Shown here in pieces: positions 9,969 to 32,658 of a stretch of DNA of 64,000 bases. The notes beneath the pieces were generated by a model. It had not been told where the DNA came from. It did no database searches and saw only the letters and a program-made list of their open reading frames with translations. The stretch spans positions 519,700 to 583,699 of the forward strand of contig CBDDPW010000021.1 of NCBI GenBank assembly GCA_965232535.1, read 5' to 3'. The position numbers were made by a program, and so were the translations under genes. The stretch comes from Candidatus Poribacteria bacterium (GTDB lineage Bacteria > Poribacteria > WGA-4E > JAJDTR01). Position 1 is the stretch's first letter. Each line of letters starts with the position of its first letter.

Positions 9969-10006
9969 AGGGTAAGTGAGTCTATCCTACAGGGTAATAC
10001 GCGGAT

Positions 10007-11143
10007 TTATCGGCGGATTACAAAGCCGGCGGCGGCAACAGATTTGGCAAAGACGTCTTCATCTAACCTAAGACCGAATCCGGGGGTGCAGGGAACCTTG
10101 ACGTGCCCGTCGGAGATTTCGTAGTCGGAGGCATCCAGACCGGGGGTTGATGCCTCATCCCATTCGACGAATTCAAAACCCCGGACTTTGGCTGCCAGGT
10201 GAGCCGCGACGTAGTTGCCGTAATGACCACCGTAATGATGGGGCGCGCTGCCAATCTCCCATTCGTCAAGTTGGGGACCAAGTTGCAACCAGTGCGTGAA
10301 ACCAGGATTGAAGATGTCATACTGGATGATATCTATCAAGCCTTCTCGCGCCCAATTAACCAGATTGGGTGATGCATCACCCTCTCCATCAGCGATGCGT
10401 GTCTCGAGCCCCTCCGCGTCTAGCCATTCACGCAGGCTCGCGTAGAATTTCGGATCTTCATGGAAGGCTTCCTCCATCCAGTACACGTTGGCATCCGCTG
10501 AGCTACCCAGTACGCGTTTCGTCAAACTCAAATTATATCCGTTGTTGGCATCTATCAGGATGGTCGCGTCTGCGCCCACAGCTTCCCGAACGGCGCGGAT
10601 GACACGGACATCTCTTGCCGTTCCTTTTTCGAGCGGCATGTGCATGGCACCGCGTCCGACCTTTATCTTGAACGCTTTATGCCCCCGCGCCACCCCTTCC
10701 AAGGCTTCCGACGCAATAAGAGACGCCGCTTCACTGTCATCTTTGATGTGAAGGTCATCGATGTACAATGACGTATCGTAGCAAGGCACACGAAAAACTT
10801 CGTCGCTGTCGGGTTTGCCGCCCAAGAGTGCGTAGACCGGTTTGCCGGTTAGCTGTCCCGCCAAATCCCAGAGTGGATATTCAAGCACGCGAAACCGCTT
10901 GTCAACACCGTGTTCCGGATCGAACATCCGGCTTAGTTTAAAGCCGAGAAGCGATTCCGCTTGTTCTTTGGTCAACGGCGACCAACCAAAGCCAGTTGCG
11001 CCATTATCGGCAGTAATACGGGCAATGCCCGGTCTAACCTGTGTTCCATGCTCTCCCAATCGCGAGTTGCATCCTGCGTGTCGCGGTCTGGTTCCGGTTA
11101 GGCGCGTCCATTCAATTCGATTGATGCTTGAATCGTTCATCAA
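10007..11143 (-). CDS. enolase-superfamily enzyme (mandelate racemase/muconate lactonizing enzyme family, sugar-acid dehydratase-like)
   Basis: 378-aa ORF. KIKVGR, ILIDANNGY and MEEAF metal-ligand contexts are typical of the MR/MLE family. Confidence 0.8.
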   Translation of the reverse strand: MMNDSSINRIEWTRLTGTRPRHAGCNSRLGEHGTQVRPGIARITADNGATGFGWSPLTKEQAESLLGFKLSRMFDPEHGVDKRFRVLEYPLWDLAGQLTGKPVYALLGGKPDSDEVFRVPCYDTSLYIDDLHIKDDSEAASLIASEALEGVARGHKAFKIKVGRGAMHMPLEKGTARDVRVIRAVREAVGADATILIDANNGYNLSLTKRVLGSSADANVYWMEEAFHEDPKFYASLREWLDAEGLETRIADGEGDASPNLVNWAREGLIDIIQYDIFNPGFTHWLQLGPQLDEWEIGSAPHHYGGHYGNYVAAHLAAKVRGFEFVEWDEASTPGLDASDYEISDGHVKVPCTPGFGLRLDEDVFAKSVAAAGFVIRR

Positions 11144-11358
11144 ACTTTTTTGGGAAATTCCGACAACCCCAACATATGGGGGATAGTCTTTATTCAGTCG
11201 CTTAATCTCACTCTACAATAAGAGTTATGTATCTGTTTAGTCCACCGGTCTGAATTTGCCAATCCAGACCGAGCGGGCAGGGAACACGCCGAGTAGGGAA
11301 ATACAATGCTTCCGATGAATCGGGAGTTTACATGCCCAGAACGGACGTGCAATGAAAA

Positions 11359-11473
11359 GGGATCTCTATCAGGATCTACTATTGGAACTCTATCGCAGTC
11401 ACTATCCGTTCCTTTGATCCTTCACTATTCGTTCAGTTGATCACTCATTGTCCATTCGCTTGATCACTACTAC
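11359..11473 (+). repeat. class I array: head GGGATCTCTATC/GGAACTCTATCGC, three 23-nt units ending TTGATC, then a CTACTAC tail
   Basis: Units agtcactatccgttcctttgatc / cttcactattcgttcagttgatc / actcattgtccattcgcttgatc, read directly. Confidence 0.8.
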
Positions 11474-11519
11474 AAACCGACATCGTTGATATAGATTGAT
11501 GGACTAAACAGTTGCAGAG

Positions 11520-12794
11520 TTATTTTCTAGCGATTAAGTGTCTGCCGCGATGCTGACGGCATCGGTACACTCCCCCATAATGCCGTTCATAGATGTATTC
11601 GTATACACCTTCCGAGACGCTACGCAGGATTTCTGTGCGGCGACTCACCCATGATCCGAAGGATTGGAAGCGATTCCGCAGATTGATTTTTGTCCTGTCC
11701 TCGATGATGCCGGTCAATATATACGCGCGCTGTTTCCCTTTCGGGTCGGTGATGACCAGAATCCCACTGTCTCCCACCATGCCATAAACCGTGCCGGTTT
11801 TGTTGTAGACGTGTACACCCCGCGGAATGCAGGTTTTGTCGTATAGGCGATCGCCCTTAGGCAACCGCAAATAATGTTTCATTTTCGGAGAATGGGGAAG
11901 GCGTCCCAGCCACAACTGATTGTAGAAACGGTTCATGTCGTGCGCCGAGGTCATGTTCCGATAGGTACGCCCGCCGTTTGGAATATATTCAACGATACGC
12001 GTATGCTCGAAATAGGGATAGTTCCACTTGAGGAGTTGATTGACGCGGTCGGGACCGCCAAGTAATCTGATGAAATAGTTTGTCGAGGTGTTATAACTCC
12101 TCTGAATCATGTTTTTCAGTTGTCGGCGATTCTGGTTTGTGTGATGCAATCGTCCCTGTCGAACCTCGTGAAAATAGACCAACATCACAAAATTTTTGAT
12201 AAGGGATGCCGCCATCATGGGCTGATCCTCGTTAATCGAAACGACCTTTTTCCCCTTAGAAATGTCGTAGACCACAAAACTCGTTCTGTCCGTCGATGCC
12301 AAGCGACGTCGAAATCGATTACTCTTGATGTATCTATCAATTCCCGCTTCAAGGGGTGAGTCCACGGACAGGTCCGGCGACTGCGACTTTTTGACGGCTG
12401 TCTTGCCAGACGGATTTTGGGGCACTCGTCCGCGATCTTGCAGCAGATCCATGGCTTCAGATCCTCGCTGTCTTGTCAAGTTGGCTTGGCATAGCAGCGG
12501 ATTGTGTTGCAGGATCGGCTCCATACTTTCTATGAGGCCTACTTCCCCATTTTGAATCGGGCCGAAACAACCGGCGCTGATGTCCACAACCTCTGCGTTT
12601 CCTTCATACGGCTCATGAACTTCAGGCGTCGAATCCGAATCCATATCTGTACTAGACGCCCAGCTGAAGTTCATGCCACAGTTGACGGGTTCCAACAGCG
12701 ACGATGAAAGGAAAACTGCCGAGAAACAGACCAGTACCAACCGGAGTTTTCTTTTTGTTGAATTTATATTAGGATTCGTCCTCAATCGATACAT
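11520..12794 (-). CDS. secreted class A beta-lactamase-like serine hydrolase
   Basis: SxxK (ASLIK), an SxN-like motif (STN) and KTG (NKTGT) in the expected order. I prefer the start at the internal Met (MYRLRT..hydrophobic signal) over ORF start 12857. Confidence 0.65.
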   Translation of the reverse strand: MYRLRTNPNINSTKRKLRLVLVCFSAVFLSSSLLEPVNCGMNFSWASSTDMDSDSTPEVHEPYEGNAEVVDISAGCFGPIQNGEVGLIESMEPILQHNPLLCQANLTRQRGSEAMDLLQDRGRVPQNPSGKTAVKKSQSPDLSVDSPLEAGIDRYIKSNRFRRRLASTDRTSFVVYDISKGKKVVSINEDQPMMAASLIKNFVMLVYFHEVRQGRLHHTNQNRRQLKNMIQRSYNTSTNYFIRLLGGPDRVNQLLKWNYPYFEHTRIVEYIPNGGRTYRNMTSAHDMNRFYNQLWLGRLPHSPKMKHYLRLPKGDRLYDKTCIPRGVHVYNKTGTVYGMVGDSGILVITDPKGKQRAYILTGIIEDRTKINLRNRFQSFGSWVSRRTEILRSVSEGVYEYIYERHYGGVYRCRQHRGRHLIARK

Positions 12795-17595: not shown

Positions 17596-17995
17596 GAATG
17601 CCTCTCCTGCCGCCCCTTAGCGGTCATTGACCTTGTGCCATAAATTTATAGTAGACATTTTTCCAAAAAAAATCTGGAGTCTATATGACTTCGGCCGTGT
17701 CGTAACTCGTTATTGTATGGGGCCGATGGCGTGTTAACTCAGTTTTTTCAGTTATTTCGGTTTTTTCAGTTTGTTCACAGCACGTTTTTTTGGGGCATTG
17801 TGCAGGGCTTCCGCCTGCTTGAGCACCCGCGGAGCAAGTCATGACGCGGGTTTTCAGGTTGTTGAGGTGCGGTACATGTTAGCGGAAAAAGCATTGTAAA
17901 GATCGTTTTAACGAAGTTTTGTTTCAGGTATTATCTTGCCGGCTACCGGACTTGCGTTACCGGCGGCGGATTTCTGCCTCACGAACCTGTCAGCC

Positions 17996-18178
17996 TAAAT
18001 GGTGATCTCGGTAAGTGTTTATGTAAGTGAGGAGGTCGCGATTCGGAGATCGCTCCTACAATCAGTCGGGTGACGTAAGGCGGTGTACGGCACACGGGAA
18101 TCTCTATGGGATCTCTATCGCCTTCACTATTCGTTCAGTTGATCACTCGCTATCCACTCGCTTGATCCTACTACTTTG
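17996..18178 (+). repeat. composite repeat: leader taaatggt..gtaagtga, class A hairpin, linker, class I (2 units), CTACTAC
   Basis: Read directly. Same module order as 18445-18668 and 34995-35130. Confidence 0.8.
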
Positions 18179-18444
18179 CTTGATCGCCGCTTTTCTCATT
18201 GAACCGATACAGCGAAAAGAGATGCCAACGGAGCGGGTTCTTCGGAATCGTAATGCTAACAAAATGCTAACAGAAAAAAGTCCCGCAGCCATGACGGTTT
18301 GTCATGATGCGCTACAATATACCACATACACGTTAAGTTATCAATCTAAAAGTAACGAGTTGCGGGAGGGAAGAAAAGTTGGCTGACAGTGGTTATTCCA
18401 TTTCTTCAAAATGACTGTGCACAATTGGTAGATGGCGTGAGTTG

Positions 18445-18668
18445 GAATCGCGATTCGGAGATCGCTCCTACAATCTGTCCGGTGATGTAAGGCGGTGTAC
18501 GGCACACGGGGATCTCTATCGCACTCGCTATCCACTCGCTTGATCCTACTACTTTGAAACCATGCCATATACTCTTGGCGAATGAACCACTAAATGGTTT
18601 TCTCGGCAAGTGTTTATGTAAGTGAAGATGTCGCGATTCGGAGATCGCTCCTACAATCTGTCGGGTGG
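18445..18668 (+). repeat. composite repeat: class A, linker, class I (1 unit), ctactactttgaaaccatgccatat.. segment, leader, second class A
   Basis: Class A copies at 18447-18473 and 18630-18657. The leader at 18590-18629 is about 90% identical to 17996-18034. Confidence 0.8.
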
Positions 18669-18819
18669 TGGGTTCTTTTGTGCATTCGATTTGCTGAAGA
18701 TATACCAGCCCCGTGGCTGCTTTGTTTGCTAATCAGTGTTTTCTGTATTTTCCGCTGTATCCGCGATTCAGACAATAATTATGCGCACTCCTCAAATATA
18801 TAGAGGATTGGAGCGGCGG

Positions 18820-19695: not shown

Positions 19696-19924
19696 CGGGA
19701 ATTATCATACCAGATTTTCTGCTACGCGTCAACCTGAAATTGGGAGATTTTTGGTGATTATATAATCAATTTTGGGGGTGGTGCATATTGGAACAATCGT
19801 ATCAATCTGTGACTGTGGAGCCCCTCTCTTTTTCGTTCTTGACTGGAGGTGTAATGAATGGGAACTCCACGACCGAATTTTGGAGAAGATTAATGGAGAT
19901 TTGGAATTGGGGATTATCGGCAAC

Positions 19925-19994
19925 TGTCTGAATCACGGATTACGGGATCTCTACCGCGCTCGCTATTCACTCGCTTGCTGGATTACGCAGATTA
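19925..19994 (+). repeat. module J (tgtctgaatcacggattac...gattacgcagatta) with a class I unit in its centre
   Basis: Compare with the compact copy at 43138-43182. Here 19944-19980 is gggatctctaccgcgctcgctattcactcgcttgctg. Confidence 0.65.
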
Positions 19995-20389
19995 CACGGA
20001 TAAAAAACACTTACCCGGCGTAGTTTTGCAGCTTGAAGATTTTTATTGGCGATTATGATGTAAGAAAGAGAAGAGATTGACGAGCAGCCAAATTAGGCCT
20101 GACCCTCTTCAGCGAAAAGAGGTTGACATCTAGAAATGCGCATTGTATGGTAATAATTCAGTTCGGCTTTAGGAACGACAATGGTTATTGCTCATAATTA
20201 TCACCAACGTAAATTCAAACCTGTGCGGAAAAGCGCTTAAAACGATTCAGTTTTTGTACGAAGGACTTGACATCTCCTTTTCGTAATAGGAAAAATTAAT
20301 CGGGTTGGCGCAAGAATTAGCGGCGCTGAATGGTTAGTCTAAGTTGAAAACCAACCGCAACGCCAACACCATAAACATACGGAGCATTC

Positions 20390-22486
20390 ATGACACAACC
20401 AGACAACATCCACACGATACTTAAAGACACTGATTATCATCTTTTTCTGTTCAAGGAAAACGAAATTGACAGTCTGCGTGATAGAATTTTCTTTAAAACT
20501 GTTAGAGAAAAAGAACGCCCGTTTGTAAACTGTATCGTGCGGAATAAGGACATTCAGTTAAAACCTGAGGAAGTCGTGCGTCAGCTTTATGCGGCAAGAC
20601 TCATTAATCAATACGGCTATTCCAAAACACGGTTGGCTTTTGAATATTCTGTTAACTTTGGCAGGCAAAAGAAAAGCGCCGATATTGTCATTCTCGACAA
20701 AGATCGGCCGGATACCGCTTATATTATCGTTGAGTTGAAAAAGCCCAAACTCAAGGACGGTAAAAACCAACTGCGCTCCTATTGCAACGCAACCGGAGCA
20801 CCGATTGGGGTCTGGACAAATGGAGAGTTTATTTCTCATTACCATCGCAAAGACCCAAATTACTTCGAAGAAATTAGCGATATTCCTAACGTTAACCAAG
20901 CCTTGAAGGATATTCTCAATGAACGTTTCACTTTGAAGGGCCTCATCCTCAAGGACAAGATTGCCACCGAGAGAAAATCGCTGAAAGACATTGTTTTGGA
21001 AATGGAGGATGAGGTGTTGGCAAATGCCGGAGTAGATGTCTTTGAGGAGGTTTTCAAACTCGTATTCACTAAACTCTATGATGAATATGAAAGCCGCAGA
21101 GATAAGGAATTCCTCAACCGATCTGTCCGACTACGCACTAAAACCGCTATACATGAGAATCAGCCCAATTATCTTTATGGCGAGGATTATGAAACCCTCA
21201 AGGCAGTGGTTAAGGAAATTCCAGATGGCGACTTCCGCCCGATGGAATTTAGAAACACCGGACAGACTGACACAGAACTTAAGAACAAGATCCAGCGTCT
21301 TTTTGACGCTGCAAAAACACAGTGGCCTGGGGTTTTTTCAGAAGGCTCCGCTTTTGAACTCACTGACAGCCATTTGGCTATTTGCGTAGCCAGCTTGCAA
21401 GATGTCAAGCTGTTCAACTCCAATCTGTTGGTGGTGGATGAAGCTTTTGAATATTTGGTGAACAAATCTGCCAAAGGCGAAAAAGGGCAGTATTTTACGC
21501 CACGCCATGTAATTGATATGTGCGTGGAGATGCTGAATCCCAAACCCGGCGAATATATGATTGATACCGCGTCAGGCAGTTGCGGTTTCCCGGTGCATAC
21601 CATCTTCAAAATCACTGGCCACCTTTTCTCCAATCAAGAAATACCAGAAGCAGATAAGCAGAACGTGCGCAAAGTCTTCGGTATTGACTTCGACGAAAAA
21701 ACAGTTAGGGTTTCCAGAACGTTGAATCTGATTGCCGGGGATGGAGAAAGCAATGTTTTGCACTTGAATACGTTGGATTTTGAACGCTGGAGCGACAGAA
21801 CAGAGGGTGACAGAAAATGGATAAGAACCTATGCCGAGGGTTTTGAACGGTTGGAAAAACTGAGAACCAACATAGGGGAAAACCAGAACTTTAACTTTGA
21901 CATTCTGATGGCAAATCCTCCCTTTGCGGGAGACATTAAGGAGAGCCGTTTGCTGCATAAATACCAACTCGGATTTAAGGCAAACAAGGAACCGCAAAGC
22001 AAAGTTGGACGCGACATTCTGTTTATTGAGCGCAATCTGGATTTTCTCAAACCAGGTGGGCGCATGGCGATTGTGCTTCCGCAGGGAAGGTTTAATAACA
22101 CATCAGATAAACATATCCGCGATTTTGTTGCCGAGCGTGCACGCATCCTGGCGGTCATCGGTCTACACATTAACACTTTCAAGCCCCACACTGGTACTAA
22201 GACTAGCGTACTGTTTGTGCAAAAATGGGACGATGGAGACCTTTGTCCCAAAGTTGACGATTATCCTATTTTCTTTGCCGTGAGCGAAAAAGGTGGGAAG
22301 GACAACTCTGGTGATTACGTCTATCTCAAGAATGAGGATTCGAAGGACAAGCTCGACAGAAATGGGCATCTAATCGTCGACCACGATTTACATAACCACA
22401 ACGGCGAATTGCCGGATGGAATCGCTGAAGCGTTTATTGAATGGGCGAAGGCCGAGAGACTGTCATTTTGGCGTCATGATGAATGA
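20390..22486 (+). CDS. fusion of an HSDR_N-type PD-(D/E)xK nuclease domain and a gamma-class N6-adenine DNA methyltransferase (HsdM/BcgI-A-like)
   Basis: N-terminus: KPEEVVRQ..SADIVIL..AYIIVELKKPK..QLRSY..WTNG (HSDR_N pattern with a D...ExK core). C-terminus: methylase motif I IDTASGSCGF and motif IV NPPFAG. GGAG RBS before the ATG. Confidence 0.85.
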   Translation: MTQPDNIHTILKDTDYHLFLFKENEIDSLRDRIFFKTVREKERPFVNCIVRNKDIQLKPEEVVRQLYAARLINQYGYSKTRLAFEYSVNFGRQKKSADIVILDKDRPDTAYIIVELKKPKLKDGKNQLRSYCNATGAPIGVWTNGEFISHYHRKDPNYFEEISDIPNVNQALKDILNERFTLKGLILKDKIATERKSLKDIVLEMEDEVLANAGVDVFEEVFKLVFTKLYDEYESRRDKEFLNRSVRLRTKTAIHENQPNYLYGEDYETLKAVVKEIPDGDFRPMEFRNTGQTDTELKNKIQRLFDAAKTQWPGVFSEGSAFELTDSHLAICVASLQDVKLFNSNLLVVDEAFEYLVNKSAKGEKGQYFTPRHVIDMCVEMLNPKPGEYMIDTASGSCGFPVHTIFKITGHLFSNQEIPEADKQNVRKVFGIDFDEKTVRVSRTLNLIAGDGESNVLHLNTLDFERWSDRTEGDRKWIRTYAEGFERLEKLRTNIGENQNFNFDILMANPPFAGDIKESRLLHKYQLGFKANKEPQSKVGRDILFIERNLDFLKPGGRMAIVLPQGRFNNTSDKHIRDFVAERARILAVIGLHINTFKPHTGTKTSVLFVQKWDDGDLCPKVDDYPIFFAVSEKGGKDNSGDYVYLKNEDSKDKLDRNGHLIVDHDLHNHNGELPDGIAEAFIEWAKAERLSFWRHDE

Positions 22487-22516
22487 AACAAAGGGGGATG
22501 AGGTTAGTATTCGATT

Positions 22517-23272
22517 ATGAGTTATATAGGAAACGAACAACATTGGAAACAGCTGATAGAAGTAGATTGGCTTGGACAATATGTCAAAACTTGGATCGCA
22601 TTCAATGCTTGGTATAGAAATAGCTTTAAGCTGAAAAACGATTGGAGAATTATTGAAGCAATCAAGAACGACGAAGGCGACATTTGCACGAAGATTGAGA
22701 CTTTTTTGGTAGGCAACAGCTCGGACCAGGAAACGTTCCAGTCAGCCGTAGCAGACCTCCATCGGGCGCTCTCAGATACAATCATAAAGTCCAAAGATAG
22801 AAAGATTTCCTTTGAGGAAATTGAAGATTATAGGCACGCCAAATCCGTTGATGAGATAAAAAACAGGGTGTCATACAGAATTGAAATAGACATTGTCGAG
22901 AAAAAGCGCCTTATTACGATAACAAATTCCAAAGGAACAACGATTTATTCTGCAACTATAGACTGGAAGCAAGAAAGGGACAACTATAATCCGCATCAAG
23001 TGGACACATTATCACACGCGCAAAATGGGGCTCTCCGCGGGTTTCTTAAGGAATCATCACCAATTCACAACTTACTTCGCTATGGGAGCAATCCTCTTGA
23101 GATTGGCAGTTTCAAATTCACAGACAACCCGAACCTAATCGCCCGGGGAATAATTGAAGTCCTTTACCAATTGAGAAATGCTCTTTTTCACGGGGAAATA
23201 ACTCCTGATCTGAAAGCACAGAGGACATATCAGCCGGCGTATCTCATTCTAAAGTCAATAATCCCAATGTGA
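22517..23272 (+). CDS. HEPN-domain protein (putative RNase) embedded between the methylase and S genes
   Basis: 251-aa ORF 30 nt after the upstream stop. C-terminal VLYQLRNALFHGEITPD carries the Rx4H HEPN signature in an RN..H context. Confidence 0.6.
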   Translation: MSYIGNEQHWKQLIEVDWLGQYVKTWIAFNAWYRNSFKLKNDWRIIEAIKNDEGDICTKIETFLVGNSSDQETFQSAVADLHRALSDTIIKSKDRKISFEEIEDYRHAKSVDEIKNRVSYRIEIDIVEKKRLITITNSKGTTIYSATIDWKQERDNYNPHQVDTLSHAQNGALRGFLKESSPIHNLLRYGSNPLEIGSFKFTDNPNLIARGIIEVLYQLRNALFHGEITPDLKAQRTYQPAYLILKSIIPM

Positions 23273-23374
23273 AGCAACATGGAAGGCGCCAAGCAGTGTC
23301 GAGAATTGAACTGTGGCTTTAATATCTGGAACCAATAGATGTCAAACACGGTAGCACCATGACGAGGGCTAACG

Positions 23375-24778
23375 ATGCAGTATTCAATTATAAATTTCAG
23401 TCAAATTAGCACGCAATTGCTCAGACTTGAAGCTGAATTTTACAATTCGAATTCGCTGTTGAATTCCTACTGTTTTTCAGGCGTAGAAGTGATTGATTTC
23501 GTTCAGTACGGAACCTCTGAAGAATTGAATGAAGAAAATAAAGGGTATCCAACTTTACGATTAAATGAGTTTTCGTCATTTTTCATAAAACATCCTCAAA
23601 AATATTGCGACAAAATTGACGAGGAAACATACCAGTCTCTCGCTTTGAAAAAAGGTGATGTTTTAATCTGTAGGACAAACGGTAATCCTCGGCTCGTAGG
23701 AAAATCGGCGATTGTGCCAGAAGATTGTAATTATGCTTTTGCGTCTTACTTATTCCGAGTTAGACCAAAAGAGGAGATATTGTTGCCAACAACCCTCGTT
23801 ACATATTTAAATTCAACAGTGGGTAGGGCCGAAATTGAGAAGCATCTCATGGTAAGCAATCAAGCAAATTTCAGTCCGGCTAAATTTCGAGAAATGCTGA
23901 TTCCACGGTTTGGAGAAAAAATTCAGTCACGTGTTGACAAATCCATTTGGGAGTCTTACTGCAAACACAGCAATTCAACGCAGATTTACACGCAAGCTGA
24001 GACTCTCTTTCTCTCCGACTTGGGCCTTGCTAACTGGAAACCTAAACATCGGCTAGCTTTTGTTGAGGGGTTCGCCAAGGCGCGACAGGTAGAACGTCTT
24101 GATGCTGATTATTTTCAACCGAAATACGATGAAATGGTCAGAGCGATAAAAAAATATCCAGGTGGCTGGGATACCCTTCAAAACTTGACAACAATAAAGA
24201 AATGCGTCGAGGTAGGAAGTGACCAATACCTTCCGGAAGGGATCCCTTTTGTCCGCGTTAGCAATTTGAGTCCGTTCGAAATTACTGAAGAAAAGTACAT
24301 CTCCGAGGCGATGTATGCAAAGTTGATAAAACACCAACCTAGACAGGGTGAAATACTCCTGAGCAAAGACGCAACTCCAGGTATTGCTTATTATCTGCGT
24401 GAACAACCACCGAAGATGATTCCTTCAGGCGGGATACTGCGTTTGGAGAGCAAAACGGACGACATTGAGAACGAGTATTTGATGTTAGTTCTAAATTCAA
24501 GGCCGACTACGGAGCAAGTAAACCGCGATGTAGGCGGGTCAGTGATACTCCATTGGAGACCAGATCAGGTTAAAGCAACAATTATTCCAATCCTTCCCAA
24601 GGATAAGCAAGTACAAATCCGAAATAAGATTACTGCATCCTTTGAGTTAAGAAAGCAGTCTAGGCAACTACTGGAATGCGCCAAACGGGCAGTTGAGATT
24701 GCAATTGAGCAAAACGAGCAAGTTGCCGTTGAATGGCTGGAAGATGCAACTAATAGACTCCGTTGTAAACGTCCCTAG
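23375..24778 (+). CDS. hsdS: restriction-modification specificity subunit (HsdS-like, two target-recognition domains)
   Basis: 467-aa ORF. Duplicated TRD architecture with conserved spacer helices (e.g. SRVDKSIWESY.. and QIRNKITASFELRKQSRQLLECAKRAVEIAIEQ). Confidence 0.85.
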   Translation: MQYSIINFSQISTQLLRLEAEFYNSNSLLNSYCFSGVEVIDFVQYGTSEELNEENKGYPTLRLNEFSSFFIKHPQKYCDKIDEETYQSLALKKGDVLICRTNGNPRLVGKSAIVPEDCNYAFASYLFRVRPKEEILLPTTLVTYLNSTVGRAEIEKHLMVSNQANFSPAKFREMLIPRFGEKIQSRVDKSIWESYCKHSNSTQIYTQAETLFLSDLGLANWKPKHRLAFVEGFAKARQVERLDADYFQPKYDEMVRAIKKYPGGWDTLQNLTTIKKCVEVGSDQYLPEGIPFVRVSNLSPFEITEEKYISEAMYAKLIKHQPRQGEILLSKDATPGIAYYLREQPPKMIPSGGILRLESKTDDIENEYLMLVLNSRPTTEQVNRDVGGSVILHWRPDQVKATIIPILPKDKQVQIRNKITASFELRKQSRQLLECAKRAVEIAIEQNEQVAVEWLEDATNRLRCKRP

Positions 24779-24788
24779 GCAATAGGTA

Positions 24789-25427
24789 ATGAGGCGCTAC
24801 ACTAAAATATTGATTTGGGAAAACAAGAAACGACTGAATAAGTTGATGGAATTCCGGGATTACATTCTTACGTACTTCAATAATAGCCGTGCCGAATGGA
24901 TAATGGATCCAAGAGTCGAAGAAGTCGCTGCACAAGAAGCTAGGTTCAACATTAATTTATCAATGAAAGAAGCCCACTCCATAATTCTTAAATCTGGAAT
25001 AACACCAACGCTTAGCTGGACTCTTCCGTCAGCAGGAGGAAGGTACTCAACGAATGTCGATCTAATTGAGAACATTTTTAACCTTCATGAATTCCAAATT
25101 GATCCGCGTCTTGTGCTTGATAACATTGATAGGGCAATTGGCATTTATGCATCTAACACCAGATCGGCACTTATCAGAATATTTAATCCGTTCTTTTACA
25201 TAGGGTTGGTGTTTGATTTTATTTCGGATCTGCCGTTTATTGCTCTTGGAAAACTTGGCTTTAACCACCACAAGGCAAGATCGTCAGCAATAGGTCGCCT
25301 AGTCAAAGGATTTTTTTACCTAATCACAGTCTTTGCCGCATTCCTAACGATATTGCATCTCTTGGGGTACTTGGATCCCGTAAAGCAGTTCGTGCATGAA
25401 TTTTTGGGCACAGAAAATGTCAATTAA
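24789..25427 (+). CDS. hypothetical protein with soluble N-domain and two C-terminal transmembrane helices
   Basis: 212-aa ORF starting 10 nt after the hsdS stop. Hydrophobic segments FNPFFYIGLVFDFISDLPFIALG and GFFYLITVFAAFLTILHLLGYL. Confidence 0.55.
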   Translation: MRRYTKILIWENKKRLNKLMEFRDYILTYFNNSRAEWIMDPRVEEVAAQEARFNINLSMKEAHSIILKSGITPTLSWTLPSAGGRYSTNVDLIENIFNLHEFQIDPRLVLDNIDRAIGIYASNTRSALIRIFNPFFYIGLVFDFISDLPFIALGKLGFNHHKARSSAIGRLVKGFFYLITVFAAFLTILHLLGYLDPVKQFVHEFLGTENVN

Positions 25428-25611
25428 ATTCGAGACAGCAAGCACCTTCGACCAGGCCAACCCAGTGTAGGCCATTTTGCATGAGGTCACCTGCATACGT
25501 ACGTAACGGAGCGAGTTTGAGATTTGCCCATGCAAGTGCAAGGGCTTCATTCGTCTAAAATGTAATGCTAAAGTATGATGTTCATTTAACTTACTAGATT
25601 TTGAGGATAAA

Positions 25612-26274
25612 ATGTACGAATTCACAAAACTTCAACTTTCCCAAGATGAATTCAACAACTTAGTTTTCATGGGTCCTGCTCCGTGGTGGGAAAAGGAACA
25701 AATTGACCCTCCTGGCTGGAATCAGCAGGAACGCGGCAGATTACCCCTCGAAGAACAGCACAAGTTTCTGCTTTGTCTTTGCCATAAGCCGCTGAAGCAG
25801 GTTGTCGAAATGGTTATAGAGAGATCCGGGGTTCAAGGGCCGAAACTAGATCCAACACGTGTTTTTCAGAATATATCCGTAGTAGCTAGAGGCGAGAAAA
25901 CTCCATGGTTTGAGCGCCATGTGTGTCTGAGTCGACATCTTCACAAGAGTCTAATGGACGAGCTCTGGGTTCGCAATCTTACGAAATTTGGCGGCGGAGA
26001 AAGAGATAAATGCCCAAGCGGGACGTTTTATACTGAGGATGGAAATCATCGCGCCCTTGTTTACGCAATGCACGTTGAGTGCGGCGTATTAAATTATGAA
26101 CCTGTTGCAGCAATACACGCAACATCTTGGGATCTTACCAGCGGTATCCTCGGTCACCAAGTCCAGAGCGCACATGTTTTGGAAAACAATGGTAGACTGC
26201 AAGACAATAATAGGCGCTTGGCGGGGCAATTCCACATGCACCTTGACCGCTATGAACGATTAACACATCCATAA
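25612..26274 (+). CDS. hypothetical protein with possible ParB/Srx-like fold
   Basis: 220-aa ORF. FYTEDGNHRALVYAM resembles the DGxHR..A core of ParB-like nuclease/Srx domains. Weak single-motif evidence. Confidence 0.45.
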   Translation: MYEFTKLQLSQDEFNNLVFMGPAPWWEKEQIDPPGWNQQERGRLPLEEQHKFLLCLCHKPLKQVVEMVIERSGVQGPKLDPTRVFQNISVVARGEKTPWFERHVCLSRHLHKSLMDELWVRNLTKFGGGERDKCPSGTFYTEDGNHRALVYAMHVECGVLNYEPVAAIHATSWDLTSGILGHQVQSAHVLENNGRLQDNNRRLAGQFHMHLDRYERLTHP

Positions 26275-26537
26275 ATGGAGAGGTTTTGATTTGCTTATGG
26301 GTTGACCATTGAAATAACCCGGCGGTTTCTAACGCCCTGAAACCTGTCGCCCCTCCGGGGCTTTGGTGTGTAGTGATTCCGCGTTACTATACACCTTTCG
26401 CACCTCTGGTGCTTTCAAAGGCTGGCGAAGGCTTAAATTATCGCACTTGTTATTCTGTCTTTTGATTCCTACAAAGGCTAGAGAGATCGCTCCCACAGAG
26501 GCGAACAAAGTTCCTATCACAGTATGGAGGGAATTGT

Positions 26538-27735: not shown

Positions 27736-28101
27736 GTGCACCCTACAAAATGACTATCGAGGAAAGCGTTGGGTTTCGCTGCGCTCTACCCAACCTACGC
27801 ACTTCTCTTAGTCCTAATCGGACGGGGGCCGGTGCGGTTGGAAACCGCACCTACCGGATGGGGTGCGACGTATAACCTCACCGACACTAAGCGAACTCCC
27901 TTAAATTGATCCCTGTGGAGGGATTCTATCGCGGTCGCTGTTCGCTCCCTTGATCCTTCACTATTCGTTCAGTTGATTCTGTTCAGTCGCTTGATTCCAC
28001 CCTACTACAAACCTGCGGTCGCGATTCGGAGATCGCTCCTACAGAAGACCTGACAGGTTTTACAGGGCAGAAACCGAGTTTTGAGGAAAAAACTCGGTTT
28101 C
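27736..28101 (+). repeat. BIME-like cluster of six different modules: C (partial) 27736, D 27768-27799, B 27829-27857, I 27920-28008, A 28017-28044, E 28070-28101
   Basis: All read directly. All CTAC tails are on the + strand. Confidence 0.85.
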
Positions 28102-28116: not shown

Positions 28117-31100
28117 TTAAATTAATTTGCGGTAAAGGATTAGATGTTCGTAATCGACTGTTACCTCAAAGGCAGTGCGGAGCGGGTCGGCGAAGGGGCT
28201 TCGTGCGGCGACTTCGCCATTGATAGTTTCGATGGTGATGCGGCGGAGCGGCTGAAATTCTCGTTTGAGAAGGTGGTGCAGGACGCCGAGGTAGTCTTGC
28301 ATTTGCGGGTCGTCGCACGGCACATTGAATTTCAGCGCCTTGCCGTTCCGCTCGGAAATCATGACAATCCGGCGTCCTCGATAGACGAGGTGGGTACCAG
28401 GAACGCGTTTGGGCAGTTTGCCTTTGACGGCGTCAAGCTGGACGCCGCATAATGACACAGGATCTGTAGCATTGATCCAGTAGACTTTATCTTCCGGAAG
28501 TTGCCGGCTCAGCACTCGAAACGCTTGATGCGAGATAAACTGGGGGCCGGGTATGCCGTGAAAGAAGTAGCCCGCCAATACTTCGCCGGACAATTCCATG
28601 ATTCGCAATGAGCGAAAAACGTTCGACCAGCGGAACGCGGGCAATTCTCGTTGAAGCAGTTCCCGAAACAGAATGCCGAATCGGTCCAGCAATAACCGGG
28701 CACGGTCTTTTTTGCGTTCCTCGGATTCAAGGAGGTCGTCCGAAAGGTCAAGTGTTGGCAGTCGATACCAGTTGCCGACATGGGAGCTTGAACCTTTCCA
28801 TCTGGCGAATTCGGCGCGGTGACTGATGCGGCGACCTCTTCCTCGCCCTTTGTCTAGTCCAATTTCGGGCGGCTTGAATTTGCTCAGTACACCTCGTCGG
28901 AGCGCCAAGAAGGTGTCGTTTGCTACACGCCCCTCCCAGACGAATTCCCAGAGTTGATTTGTTAACGGCGCAGCACTCATGCCCGAGGTTCGGAGCAGAG
29001 AGGAGAAATCGTATCGCCCCGTTTCGTCCGGGAAGAAATTGTCAAGATTGCTCTCTTCGCGGTTCTCAGGGTGATGCGTCCCAGCGTCATCTTCTTCCTC
29101 GCGATTGAACTCAACTTGGTTCGGCAGGTTTTCGGCGGTTTCTTCGTGCGTCAGGTCGAAATCCTCTTCAAAGTAGAAGGTCACGCGGCGATTTTCGCCG
29201 CCGATCCACCTTAGTCCCCCTTCCATCATGGCGGAATCGAGCCATGACGTGTTATAAACGCGACATCTGGCGGGGAAGATTTCCGATTCCCACAAGCCCG
29301 CCGTTGCCGGATAGCATACCAACTGCTCAATATTAGCTAGCAGACCGTCAACATCGTCCGCAGGAGTCATCAGTTTTTGGAAATTGGCAAGGAACACGGT
29401 CAGCCACTCAAATTCCAGCGGTTCAAAACTTGGCGCCGCATCTCGCCGCGTCAGGCGAAGAAGTATTTCGAAGTTTTCGCTATCGCACAGGGTTTCGGCT
29501 GTAGCATCCTCTACAAGCTGACCGACGATGATTTTCTGCGAATCTGCGAGGTCGTCCAGCGCCAGACTGAGTTGAACCTCCGCTATGCCGAGGGTTTCGC
29601 CAATGTACTCGGAAGTGGTGGGGCCATAGAACTGCAACCATTCACCGATGAGCGAGGTTAGCTCTTGAGCGTCATCAATCGCGGAGGAATCGGCGTCCTT
29701 AACTTCAGGCTTAAAGTTGAGCGGGGCTTTTGGTTTGCCGAGCGATTCACCTTCGATCGATTCTATATTGTCGTAGAGAACACAGATTCGGGGCATCATT
29801 TCCAAGGCAACAATCAGTGAATCAGAGGCTTCCGGCGGCTTTATCAGCACAAGCTTGTCGGCTATAGGCGAGAGAATCTCGTCCGGTTCAAGGTTGTGAT
29901 CGCTACGGATGGCTTCAAGAAGCGTGCTCCACTCCGGTGCGGGGATGAGGAGCCGTTCCTTCACCCAATCGATTAGATCTACCGGAGTCTGGGGGGAATA
30001 TCCCGGACTGAGTCGACGACGTTTCTGTTCAAACTGGCGGATAAGGGTTGAGGAAACGGTCGGACGCAACCCGGGTGTAAACACGACATCGCGCAGGAGG
30101 TCACTTCGGAGCATCGAGGTAGTGGTCGCCGTGGAATGGTCACTCATATACATGTACTCGTTTATCTGCCGCCAAGAGGCGTTTTGCGCCATCGGGCTGG
30201 CGTAGGCGGTGGGCACCGCTGTCCAACGGATAGAGCCGGATTCTAACTCGGCGAGCACTTGCTGGAGGCTGTCCAGATCAAACTCGTCTTGGAGGCAGGT
30301 ACGCCAGGTCTCAAGAAGGATCGGAAAATCCTCGTACTGCATTACGGCGGTCATCAACTTCTGCGACCGGAGTCGGCTCAACCAGAGCGGCATCCGTTGG
30401 TTCATCTTGCCGCTTGATGTCATGAGTAACGAGGTTCCGGCACACTCTCTGAACCTTGCGCAGAAGAATCCGGAACCTTCGAGTTGCCTGCGAAGCAGGG
30501 GTTGAAGCGTCGCACTTGTCACCAATGAGAGGAGTTCGGCAGGAGGCAATTCATCCGGAAGCATAAGGACAACGCCGTCATCCGTCGCGTGAACTTCGAG
30601 TTGATATCCGAATCGGTCTGCCCATGCCGACGCAAGCGCCACACCGTACGGTCGATTGACTTTGGCACCCCAGAAGGTGTGAATGACCACCTGATTCCCC
30701 GGTATCCCTTCATGACCGGTATCGACAATTTCGACGAGCACGTGGCGGCGATGCGGCAGATCGCAGTCCGTGGCATCTTTCTGTCTTTGGAGGAAATCTA
30801 CCAGTTGCATCGCAGCGGTCTCCTCCATGCAATTCAGGCACTGCAAATCGTCAAGATAGTCGGGATCGTCGAGACGCCGGTTTGCCTCCTCGAGAAAGAG
30901 ACCGATACGTTCAGAGAAGTGAAAATCCCTGCCATAATCTTCGGCGCGCCAAAACGGGGCTTCCTTCTGAGGCGATCGATTTGGCAGAACGAAAACATCG
31001 CTATGGGTGACACGCTCGACTCGCCACGTCTGCGTACCGAGCGTAAAGACGCTCCCCTCTCCATTTTCCCAGACAAACTCCTCGTCAAGCTCACCAATTC

Positions 31101-32658
31101 GAGCGTTGGTTTCGGCGTGGCGCATGTGAAAATAGCCGCGGTCGGGTATAGTCCCGCCGAACATGTAGACCGCCTGAACAGCTCCCTTCCTAGCGGACAC
31201 GGTATTGTCGAGCCGGTCAATCGAAACACGCTGTTTGAGTTCGCGGATTCGGCTGTCGGCGTAACGCCCCGCCAACATATTCAGTACTTGGTCAAACTGC
31301 TCACGCCCCAGGTGACGATAGGGGTAGCTCGTCCTGAGATGCGTGTAGAGTTCATCCATGTCCCACGTCTGCATCGCCGCCATTGAGACGATTATTTGGG
31401 ACAGCACATCGAGGGGACATTTCACGGGCTTGACAGCCTCGATCGCCTGTTCACCGATAGCCTCCGCGAGCACGGCGGCATCAAGAAAATCGCGTGCATG
31501 CGTCGGATAAACCGTCGCACGGCTTACTTCGCCGACTTGGTGCCCGGCGCGGCCGATTCGCTGAATGGCGGAAGATATCGAGAACGGTGATTGGATAAGA
31601 ACGACTTCGTCCAGTGAGCCGATGTCAATACCCATTTCCAGCGAACTCGTGGCAATGATAGCCTTCAATTCACCGGCTTTGAGTTTGGATTCGACAGACT
31701 CGCGAAGCTCGCGCGACAAGGATCCGTGGTGCGCATAGGCGACGGGCTCCTCCTCCTCGGCGTTTATCATCATCGTCAGCCGCTCACAGAGCCTTCTGCT
31801 GTTGGCGAAAAGTAGGGTAGACTGATGTCGATTTATGATTTTCTTGAAATCTTCAACGAGGGGATCCCAGAACGACTCGTGCCCCGGATCCTCGGCGGCT
31901 TCATCCGGATATCGGACGTGCACTTCGTACTGTTTATCGGCTTTTGAAGAGATTAGCGATACGTGTCTCGGTGTATATTGCGGATTATACAGGTCGCCAT
32001 CAGTTCTGTATCCGCCAACGAACTCGGCAACAGTCTCCATGGGTCGAATTGTGGCGGATAGCCCAATCCGCTGGAATTCGCCAGAAAGTGGGATGAGACG
32101 GTCCACGGCGGTAATCAGATGCGTTCCGCGCTTTGTGCCGAAAACTGCGTGAATCTCGTCAAGAATTACGGTAGAAATCTTGGTCAGGTTGGATCTCCCG
32201 CCTCCGGAACTTAGGAGAAGATTCAGGCTCTCCGGGGTGGTGATGAGAATTTCCGGCGGGTGGCGCTGCATTTGGCGGCGATCAGAGTGCGGCGTGTCTC
32301 CACTACGGGTCAGAACCCGGATATTGGGGAAGGGGTGTCCCGCGTCTTCGAAGACCTGTCTTAGTCCCCGCAGCGGCTCCAGAAGATTTCGACGAATGTC
32401 GTTGTTGAGCGCTTTCAGAGGTGAGACATATAGGACGCTGGTGTGTCCGAGGGGCAACTCCTCCGTGACCAGTTGATTGATTGCCCAGAGAAAGGCTGTC
32501 AGGGTCTTGCCGCTACCGGTCGGCGCGGTGACCAGAACGTGTTCGCCTCCGACAATCTTGGGCCATGCGTGGGCTTGAGCATCCGTCGGATCGCCAATTG
32601 CCTCGGTAAACCATTTCGCGACGAGTGGATGGAATTGGGAAAGAGGGGTTTGGGGCAT
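28117..32658 (-). CDS. lhr: Lhr-like large ATP-dependent DEAD/DEAH-box helicase
   Basis: 1513-aa ORF. Walker A APTGSGKT, DEIH box, SAT-like LSATI, HHGSLS, and the long C-terminal extension typical of Lhr. Confidence 0.9.
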   Translation of the reverse strand: MPQTPLSQFHPLVAKWFTEAIGDPTDAQAHAWPKIVGGEHVLVTAPTGSGKTLTAFLWAINQLVTEELPLGHTSVLYVSPLKALNNDIRRNLLEPLRGLRQVFEDAGHPFPNIRVLTRSGDTPHSDRRQMQRHPPEILITTPESLNLLLSSGGGRSNLTKISTVILDEIHAVFGTKRGTHLITAVDRLIPLSGEFQRIGLSATIRPMETVAEFVGGYRTDGDLYNPQYTPRHVSLISSKADKQYEVHVRYPDEAAEDPGHESFWDPLVEDFKKIINRHQSTLLFANSRRLCERLTMMINAEEEEPVAYAHHGSLSRELRESVESKLKAGELKAIIATSSLEMGIDIGSLDEVVLIQSPFSISSAIQRIGRAGHQVGEVSRATVYPTHARDFLDAAVLAEAIGEQAIEAVKPVKCPLDVLSQIIVSMAAMQTWDMDELYTHLRTSYPYRHLGREQFDQVLNMLAGRYADSRIRELKQRVSIDRLDNTVSARKGAVQAVYMFGGTIPDRGYFHMRHAETNARIGELDEEFVWENGEGSVFTLGTQTWRVERVTHSDVFVLPNRSPQKEAPFWRAEDYGRDFHFSERIGLFLEEANRRLDDPDYLDDLQCLNCMEETAAMQLVDFLQRQKDATDCDLPHRRHVLVEIVDTGHEGIPGNQVVIHTFWGAKVNRPYGVALASAWADRFGYQLEVHATDDGVVLMLPDELPPAELLSLVTSATLQPLLRRQLEGSGFFCARFRECAGTSLLMTSSGKMNQRMPLWLSRLRSQKLMTAVMQYEDFPILLETWRTCLQDEFDLDSLQQVLAELESGSIRWTAVPTAYASPMAQNASWRQINEYMYMSDHSTATTTSMLRSDLLRDVVFTPGLRPTVSSTLIRQFEQKRRRLSPGYSPQTPVDLIDWVKERLLIPAPEWSTLLEAIRSDHNLEPDEILSPIADKLVLIKPPEASDSLIVALEMMPRICVLYDNIESIEGESLGKPKAPLNFKPEVKDADSSAIDDAQELTSLIGEWLQFYGPTTSEYIGETLGIAEVQLSLALDDLADSQKIIVGQLVEDATAETLCDSENFEILLRLTRRDAAPSFEPLEFEWLTVFLANFQKLMTPADDVDGLLANIEQLVCYPATAGLWESEIFPARCRVYNTSWLDSAMMEGGLRWIGGENRRVTFYFEEDFDLTHEETAENLPNQVEFNREEEDDAGTHHPENREESNLDNFFPDETGRYDFSSLLRTSGMSAAPLTNQLWEFVWEGRVANDTFLALRRGVLSKFKPPEIGLDKGRGRGRRISHRAEFARWKGSSSHVGNWYRLPTLDLSDDLLESEERKKDRARLLLDRFGILFRELLQRELPAFRWSNVFRSLRIMELSGEVLAGYFFHGIPGPQFISHQAFRVLSRQLPEDKVYWINATDPVSLCGVQLDAVKGKLPKRVPGTHLVYRGRRIVMISERNGKALKFNVPCDDPQMQDYLGVLHHLLKREFQPLRRITIETINGEVAARSPFADPLRTAFEVTVDYEHLILYRKLI

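Follow-up and report, generated by a model that had tools for sequence, protein, structure and literature searches.

A probable mosaic island in Candidatus Poribacteria built around a predicted helicase-less restriction-modification enzyme

Restriction-modification (RM) enzymes in which a fused restriction and modification polypeptide works with a separate specificity subunit (R~M + S) represent a described architecture without a helicase, exemplified by enzymes of the BcgI/BsaXI type (PMC3874165). Zymomonas mobilis ZM4 has such a fusion of HsdR_N and HsdM, ZMO1934, which together with the HsdS protein ZMO1933 methylates its own site; this enzyme, HsdMSc, also lowers plasmid uptake in a site-dependent manner, independently of the other HsdR of the cell (PMC8432527). 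The Zymomonas system is the only relative of the locus considered here for which HsdR-less restriction has been shown by experiment (PMC8432527). That locus is an island of five plus-strand open reading frames (ORFs), g1 to g5 (Table 1), found within a 64-kb stretch of contig CBDDPW010000021.1 from a Candidatus Poribacteria genome; the whole stretch is referred to as the window, and coordinates are those of the window unless another sequence is named. A sequence-only reading had proposed that the five genes constitute one composite defence module, coupling a nuclease-methylase/S pair that lacks any HsdR to an RNase (g2) and a membrane effector (g4). What was observed from sequence, namely the domains encoded at this locus, the conservation of their motifs and the linkage and variability of the genes, argues for another organization; the island is probably a mosaic, comprising a self-contained R~M + S enzyme (g1 and g3), an optional g2, and g4 and g5 as loosely linked or unrelated neighbours.

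The protein encoded by g1 matches the full Pfam profile of HSDR_N_2 and, in its C-terminal half, the N6_Mtase family (Table 1). Its methylase motifs I (IDTASGSCGF) and IV (NPPFAG) are each at least 95% conserved across the family, and these, together with the PD-(D/E)xK core of its nuclease domain, had all been picked out by the earlier reading and are backed by Pfam. The putative catalytic residues of the PD-(D/E)xK core are D98, E115 and K117; in an alignment of 74 full-length homologues with 51-81% identity, D98 is retained in 73 (the remaining sequence has a gap), and E115 and K117 in all 74. Against the PADLOC model PDLC03034 ('MTase_I'), g1 scored 952 bits over nearly its full length. 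The g3 product was recognized by Pfam Methylase_S (E 3e-8) and, in two stretches corresponding to its two halves, by the PADLOC Specificity_I models (best E 9.6e-32), which bears out its initial description as an HsdS with two target-recognition domains (TRDs). With respect to existing tools, the type I modification (M) and S models of PADLOC account for g1 and g3, while g2, g4 and g5 match no model in PADLOC, nor any in Pfam or NCBIfam. Scanning a single genome from each species yielded 80 loci with relatives of g1 at 51-80% identity, most of them in metagenome-assembled genomes (MAGs) of Candidatus Poribacteria and the rest in sponge-associated phyla, Gastranaerophilales, cyanobacteria and others. 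An S gene follows the g1 relative in 70 of the 80, and eight of the other ten end at contig edges, so that the pairing holds in 70 of 72 assessable loci; the conserved unit of the island is g1+g3.

No HsdR or superfamily 2 (SF2) translocase was found in the island, in the 64-kb window or in the 80 related loci, where a hidden restriction (R) subunit was sought by clustering all neighbouring ORFs and by scanning the large ORFs of the window. The window encodes a single SF2 helicase, an Lhr of full architecture on the minus strand at 28117-32658, and the lack of HsdR in or beside the locus had thus been read correctly. Because the R~M + S layout is already described, the missing helicase is to be expected and presents no anomaly. 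In line with this, the solved structure that g1 matches best in sequence is that of the type IIB enzyme RM.BsaXI, although the match covers the methylase part only. By its domain architecture and by analogy, g1+g3 belongs to a kind of helicase-less RM enzyme that is already known, with a predicted restriction activity, and may be either 'type I-like' or 'type IIB'.

Lodged at the junction of the two core genes, g2 was found by a hidden Markov model (HMM) census in 19 of the 80 g1 loci, between M and S in 11 loci of the Poribacteria type and directly 3' of S in eight of the Gastranaerophilales type; the other 61 loci have no g2. Every copy examined adjoins an HSDR_N_2-methylase or S gene, be it in these 19 loci, in L081-L084 and L096-L098 (the prefix L denotes individual loci under comparison) or on a Klebsiella plasmid. 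The slot between M and S is itself variable, being empty in ~38 loci and occupied by DUF4145/HEPN genes in five, PIN genes in two (L040 and L095), RhuM genes in two and DUF5677-like genes in two. The published survey of HEPN proteins lists such toxin-type slot genes as embedded in RM operons (PMC3710099), and the precedent for HEPN genes inside RM operons that had been invoked for g2 therefore holds. An intact set of methylase, S and g2-like genes, in this order, is carried at 175746-179961 of the Klebsiella pneumoniae plasmid NZ_LR890357.1 (L099), a conjugative IncFIB/IncFII plasmid of Klebsiella INF231, and two DUF262 genes come next; the proteins of the set are WP_086812921, WP_086812922 and WP_114502763. 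On 463 other Klebsiella plasmids, only a C-terminal 138-aa remnant of the g2-like gene was seen; in L100 (NZ_CP083067.1, 158122-158538), the single annotation examined, this remnant abuts IS1. Accessory genes of this RM class also vary downstream of S, at a second position where an AAA_21/AAA_15 ATPase of ~390-400 aa is often located (L012, L013, L020, L023, L024, L033, L044 and L080), mostly paired with a 236-aa DUF4276-like gene.

The g2 family is large, with 119 close homologues and, following a profile search, at least 717 clusters at 50% identity, none of them annotated. The motif LRNALFHG, by which g2 had been suspected to be a HEPN protein, is present at residues 219-226, but it lies 25 residues short of the C-terminus and not at the very end of the protein. 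R220 and H225, the pair that defines its Rx4H core, are invariant in 44 sequences and again in 81 diverse homologues; across the latter, Y217 is the only other invariant residue. In the AlphaFold (AF2) model of g2 (predicted local distance difference test score, pLDDT, 89.9; predicted template modelling score, pTM, 0.87), helices at residues 18-36 and 69-87 are followed by a large beta-rich insert (88-204) placed after the second long helix, a helix at 205-224, a loop, and a last helix at 232-248; R220 closes the penultimate helix and H225 opens the loop before the last one. Both the position of the motif and the order of the elements agree with the description of HEPN domains in PMC3710099, a match of topology that was judged by the order of elements and not by three-dimensional superposition. 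The Pfam model HEPN_Swt1 gave sub-threshold matches in 3 of 44 family members (best E 4e-4), one of which, at 16.3 bits against a cut-off of 27.5, covers the motif region, and HEPN_Apea and HEPN_LA2681 gave one weak match each. A HEPN-like RNase is the most likely reading of g2, favoured by somewhat better than even chances from sequence and model; it is not an established membership of that superfamily.

A number of searches weigh against this identification. With Foldseek, the best PDB match of the g2 model had an E of 0.28 and a template modelling (TM) score of ~0.15, with no HEPN entry among the matches, and nothing significant was returned from BFVD. Profile searches of PDB sequences were empty, hhalign gave a probability of 0.3% for g2 against the slot-resident DUF4145 proteins, and no Pfam HEPN model reached threshold on g2 or on sets of 44, 81 and 20 family members. 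The PD-(D/E)xK domain proposed for g1 has the backing of Pfam; the HEPN fold proposed for g2 was not confirmed by Foldseek. The Foldseek negative is not decisive, because the method is weak for short all-helical cores with large inserts. As separate observations, a 216-aa ORF at 6768-7418 of L096, a distant locus, overlaps the 3' end of the g2 homologue and gave a weak match (E 0.006) to Ribonuc_2-5A (KEN, HEPN-type). Further, a family of 217-226-aa proteins with an invariant RNxxxH motif is encoded ~125-860 nt upstream of g1 relatives in Gastranaerophilales-type loci (L047, L048, L050, L052 and L056); it has no Pfam match and aligned with g2 by hhalign at 0.7% probability.

The linkage of g2 to the core enzyme allows a more ambitious proposal, which we regard as possible and no stronger than tentative. 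M-S-g2 might be a distinct and widespread three-gene defence module, in which an uncatalogued Rx4H protein with no fold match in PDB or BFVD is coupled specifically to a helicase-less RM enzyme and plays the part of PrrC without an ATPase, inactive as long as it is bound to the RM complex and turning into an RNase once a phage anti-restriction factor disables that complex. The combination of M, S and g2 reaches from Poribacteria and other sponge symbionts to Gastranaerophilales and a Klebsiella IncF plasmid. The strict linkage of g2 to one class of RM would also suit a structural or regulatory subunit that serves in assembly, in the timing of restriction versus methylation or in DNA binding, with the Arg and His used for binding and not for RNA cleavage; the large beta-rich insert and the lack of a fold or profile match to HEPN structures and families favour this interpretation. 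An essential subunit is not what g2 can be, because most g1/g3 pairs (61/80) are without it. The slot that g2 occupies is taken in other loci by bona fide toxin or RNase domains, and the restriction of invariance to the Rx4H pair and one Tyr is a pattern typical of a catalytic site, so that a role as RM subunit is judged improbable.

Still less probable, and on the whole unlikely, is that g1+g3 is a methyltransferase only, an orphan or epigenetic M+S pair in which HSDR_N_2 would be a non-catalytic DNA-binding or regulatory domain and no restriction would occur. The points that weigh against assigning a restriction activity to g1+g3 belong here. PADLOC and the GenBank annotators describe such proteins as type I methyltransferase or 'N-6 DNA methylase', and the REBASE-derived PADLOC model in particular names g1 a 'type I methyltransferase' and not an RM enzyme. 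Only in its methylase part does g1 resemble a characterised type IIB enzyme, the best PDB sequence match being RM.BsaXI (8w0p; E 4.1e-21) over residues 497-613 only, the region of methylase motif IV, and the N-terminal 292 aa of g1 have no sequence match in PDB. Moreover, restriction by the Zymomonas relative is only weak (PMC8432527). On the other side, the retention of D98, E115 and K117 in 73-74 of the 74 homologues would be unexpected of a decayed nuclease, HsdMSc lowers plasmid uptake at its site without HsdR, and the gene pair sits among toxin-type and defence-type neighbours.

The two remaining genes were assessed for their association with the core enzyme. In g4, hydropathy revealed two hydrophobic segments at about residues 127-158 and 166-198, in keeping with the two C-terminal transmembrane helices foreseen for it. 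Among its 120 homologues, g4 lies 7-24 nt 3' of an S gene in the window, L002, L003, L081-L085 and L095, but it was also found apart from RM, beside an AAA_15/21 ATPase in L090-L092 and in an Omnitrophica glycosyltransferase cluster in L093-L094; only 2 of the 80 g1 loci contain it. It is a small membrane protein, loosely tied to RM, whose gene is frequently carried along just 3' of S. Some functional tie between g4 and RM is possible, since only 10 nt separate g3 from g4 and several divergent loci likewise have g4 after S, and this counts against treating it as a mere bystander.

For g5, 66 homologues were found, a family in which the motifs DGNHR and HATSW do not vary; the DGNHR motif, reported earlier as ParB/Srx-like, is present at residues 143-147 and is invariant in 40 homologues. 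None of these 40 members matched Pfam ParBc, and a profile search against PDB sequences found nothing. The AF2 model of g5 (pLDDT 78.6) gave human sulfiredoxin as its top two Foldseek matches in PDB, neither of them significant (E 0.9-1.6, TM 0.19/0.31). None of the 80 g1 loci has g5, and among three near-identical islands that lack g1 it is present in one. In L087 it lies upstream of an unrelated methylase/S pair, and in L088 it adjoins a SNIPE nuclease; it is probably a neighbour independent of the RM module. An independent g4-g5 cassette was also considered, but two observations weaken it: an S remnant persists in L085 at the chromosomal site of the island, and g5 occurs without g4 in L087-L089.

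These distributions bear directly on the composite module with which the analysis began, namely a nuclease-methylase/S sensor combined with the RNase g2, the membrane effector g4 and the ParB/Srx-like g5 as a single integrated system. In its favour, the five genes share one strand and tight spacing, with gaps of 30, 102, 10 and 184-185 nt, all in agreement with the ORFs, sizes and spacings first called; the only plus-strand terminator-like site in the island follows g5 (Table 1); the entire block is low in GC; and the same order recurs in L084 and, in part, in L083. Being relatives at strain level that occupy this very site in the chromosome, the latter two are not independent evidence. A census of the 80 g1-anchored loci by tblastn and HMM found g2 in 19, g4 in two and g5 in none, and the five-gene order was not kept; all five genes occur together only in strain-level relatives of the same chromosomal site. 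In addition, g5 comes and goes among near-identical islands and has unrelated neighbours, g4 occurs in non-RM contexts, and the GC of g5 (46.9%) is above the 39.7-44.3% range of g1-g4. A single five-gene system is thus largely refuted and very improbable; what endures of the original proposal is an M/S pair with an embedded Rx4H gene. Least credible of all, to the point of being negligible, is that the locus represents a reduced or degenerate MADS with g1 and g3 resembling MAD2 and MAD5: the NCBIfam models gave 284 bits for MAD2 over nearly the whole length of g1 and 132 bits for MAD5 on g3, and the PADLOC mad2 and mad5 models match too, but both NCBIfam scores are far under the equivalog cut-offs (720 and 400), and g1 scores far higher against the REBASE-type model cited above. 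PADLOC recognizes none of g2, g4 and g5, the genes around the pair do not include an ATPase, a kinase or an additional nuclease, and other mad genes were unseen in the 80 loci. The sub-threshold similarity is best taken as shared M/S ancestry and not as MADS membership.

For the favoured mosaic, a mode of action can be proposed. The S subunit would bind a bipartite DNA site and position two copies of g1, of which the methylase domain would mark host DNA at adenine and the N-terminal PD-(D/E)xK domain would cut unmethylated DNA near the site, with no ATP-driven translocation and with a cleavage geometry that is presumed. By analogy with PrrC and with the HEPN, PIN and RhuM genes embedded in RM loci, g2 may serve as an optional toxin-type Rx4H RNase, either backing up the RM as a further layer of defence or stabilising it, while g4 and g5 would be bystanders or loosely associated cargo. 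That g2 cleaves RNA, and that the parts are coupled in any way, is presumptive.

The history of the island was examined through its closest relatives. The chromosomal setting, in which the island is preceded by a hydrolase gene and followed by genes for a PD40 protein and Lhr, is common to strain-level relatives that differ in island content. All five genes are present in L084 in the same order as in the window; L081-L083 are without g1, which has been lost where fragments of transposase and integrase mark the junction; and L085 retains only an S remnant with g4-g5. Between the window and L084, identity is 85% for g1, 91% for g2, 80% for g4 and 80% for g5, and falls to 61% for g3 (23375-24778 compared with 6470-7906 of L084); this low value relative to the flanking genes is consistent with exchange of TRDs. 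It was also observed that positions 3-1745 of L084, upstream of the hydrolase, hold an additional S-like gene that has decayed and, after it, a g4-like gene with a frameshift, and that the matching position of the window contains repeat-rich non-coding DNA only.

Relatives of g1 at 73-80% amino acid identity were found in MAGs of several phyla, which points to recent exchange of the RM system among members of the same communities. Loci with relatives at 73-79% identity (L001, L004, L005, L019, L039, L040, L057 and L069, the match lying at about 10001-12100 in full-length loci) derive from MAGs assigned to Caldilineaceae, Dehalococcoidia, Gammaproteobacteria, Nitrospirales and Limisphaerales. 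A computed profile substantiated the drop in GC that had been estimated by hand, giving 43.0% for the island, the lowest-GC 6.3-kb stretch of the 64-kb window, compared with 50.8% for the rest of the window and 55-57% for the genes flanking the island. No tRNA or non-coding RNA integration site was detected by tRNA and Rfam searches; neither was an empty site found, and a metagenome scan with the flanking hydrolase gave no close relatives. Acquisition of the island as foreign DNA, as was first suggested, is plausible in view of the GC dip, the relatives of g1 across phyla, and the variable island content with its transposase and integrase fragments.

Table 1. Features of the island and its upstream leader, in window coordinates
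Feature	Position	Strand	Remarks
Non-coding leader upstream of g1	19696-20389	+	GC 42% (0.422)
Dispersed 34-nt repeat, one copy in g1 leader	19944-19977		
Candidate TTGACA promoters in g1 leader	20123-20151, 20267-20296	+	pattern scan
g1	20390-22486	+	698 aa, nuclease-methylase fusion
HSDR_N_2 domain of g1	20564-20887	+	residues 59-166, Pfam E 8.7e-27, full profile
N6_Mtase domain of g1	21434-22276	+	residues 349-629, Pfam E 3.9e-31
g2	22517-23272	+	251 aa, accessory protein at M-S junction
Rx4H motif of g2 (R220-N-A-L-F-H225)	23174-23191	+	invariant in homologues
g3	23375-24778	+	467 aa, S subunit with two target-recognition domains
g4	24789-25427	+	212 aa, soluble N-terminal part and two C-terminal hydrophobic segments
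g5	25612-26274	+	220 aa, invariant DGNHR and HATSW motifs
Terminator-like hairpin 3' of g5	26349-26361	+	GCCCCTCCGGGGC then TTTGGTGT

The regulatory signals listed in Table 1 are to be read with caution. The promoter sites of the leader are candidates only, because the number of matches was no higher than in shuffled controls, and the overall count of terminator-like sites likewise did not exceed that of such controls. The repeat-rich intergenic DNA that had been taken to accompany the island does exist: a gene-free 1.2-kb gap at 17596-18819 contains a 78-nt repeat three times (17995, 18407 and 18590) along with several repeats of 28-35 nt. A 28-nt core, TCGCGATTCGGAGATCGCTCCTACAATC, is present in seven copies across the window, including those at 28019, 45933, 50067 and 56094, all four of which are intergenic; it is therefore a dispersed genomic repeat and not a border signature. 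Repeats as borders of the island were accordingly ruled out, the family being dispersed through the window and not specific to the island, and the family suggests a REP-like (repetitive extragenic palindromic) or MITE-like (miniature inverted-repeat transposable element) dispersed element of this genome.

A class of helicase-less restriction enzymes that has already been described accounts for the absence of HsdR, which made the locus appear anomalous. Annotation pipelines label the proteins of such loci plainly as 'N-6 DNA methylase', so that the number of these restriction systems is probably underestimated. The main residual interest lies in the uncatalogued g2 family with its tight linkage to helicase-less RM, which singles it out as a candidate for a new family of toxins or RNases that accompany RM systems. 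The variable M-S slot, filled by g2, DUF4145, PIN or RhuM genes or left empty, offers a natural comparison for the recruitment of second-line effectors by RM systems, and the idea of g2 as such an effector is testable in a standard host, because an intact module resides on a conjugative plasmid of Klebsiella pneumoniae.

Compared with the known systems, g1 resembles the type IIB enzymes BcgI and BsaXI (multimeric type IIG) in the fusion of an N-terminal PD-(D/E)xK nuclease to a gamma-class adenine methylase, and the island shares with them a separate two-TRD S subunit and the lack of a translocase. It departs from them in that the nuclease of g1 is of the HSDR_N_2 type, that REBASE-derived models class g1 as a type I M protein, that g3 is of full type I size (467 aa), and that an extra gene, g2, lies between the RM and S genes. 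The Zymomonas HsdMSc, compared by description only, matches g1+g3 in domain architecture and in the absence of HsdR; its locus was described as two genes without embedded accessory genes, unlike the island. With classical type I RM systems the island has in common a gamma-class N6-adenine methylase and a two-TRD S subunit, but the HsdR motor is absent from it. The M and S proteins of MADS are homologous to g1 and g3 and the HSDR_N-methylase layout is common to both, whereas the island is without the remaining mad genes. Finally, g2 recalls the HEPN and Abi genes embedded in RM loci (PrrC in EcoprrI, DUF4145, the Abi2/Swt1 clade and ApeA) in being a small Rx4H gene inside an RM operon. It is not a member of the PrrC family, because it has no ATPase domain; in contrast to PrrC and RloC, its 251 aa give no match to an ABC-ATPase. 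Unlike the RM-embedded HEPN genes, g2 reaches no curated HEPN model and carries a beta-rich insert of ~115 residues, and the RM enzyme that it accompanies is of the helicase-less fusion type and not a classical type I system.

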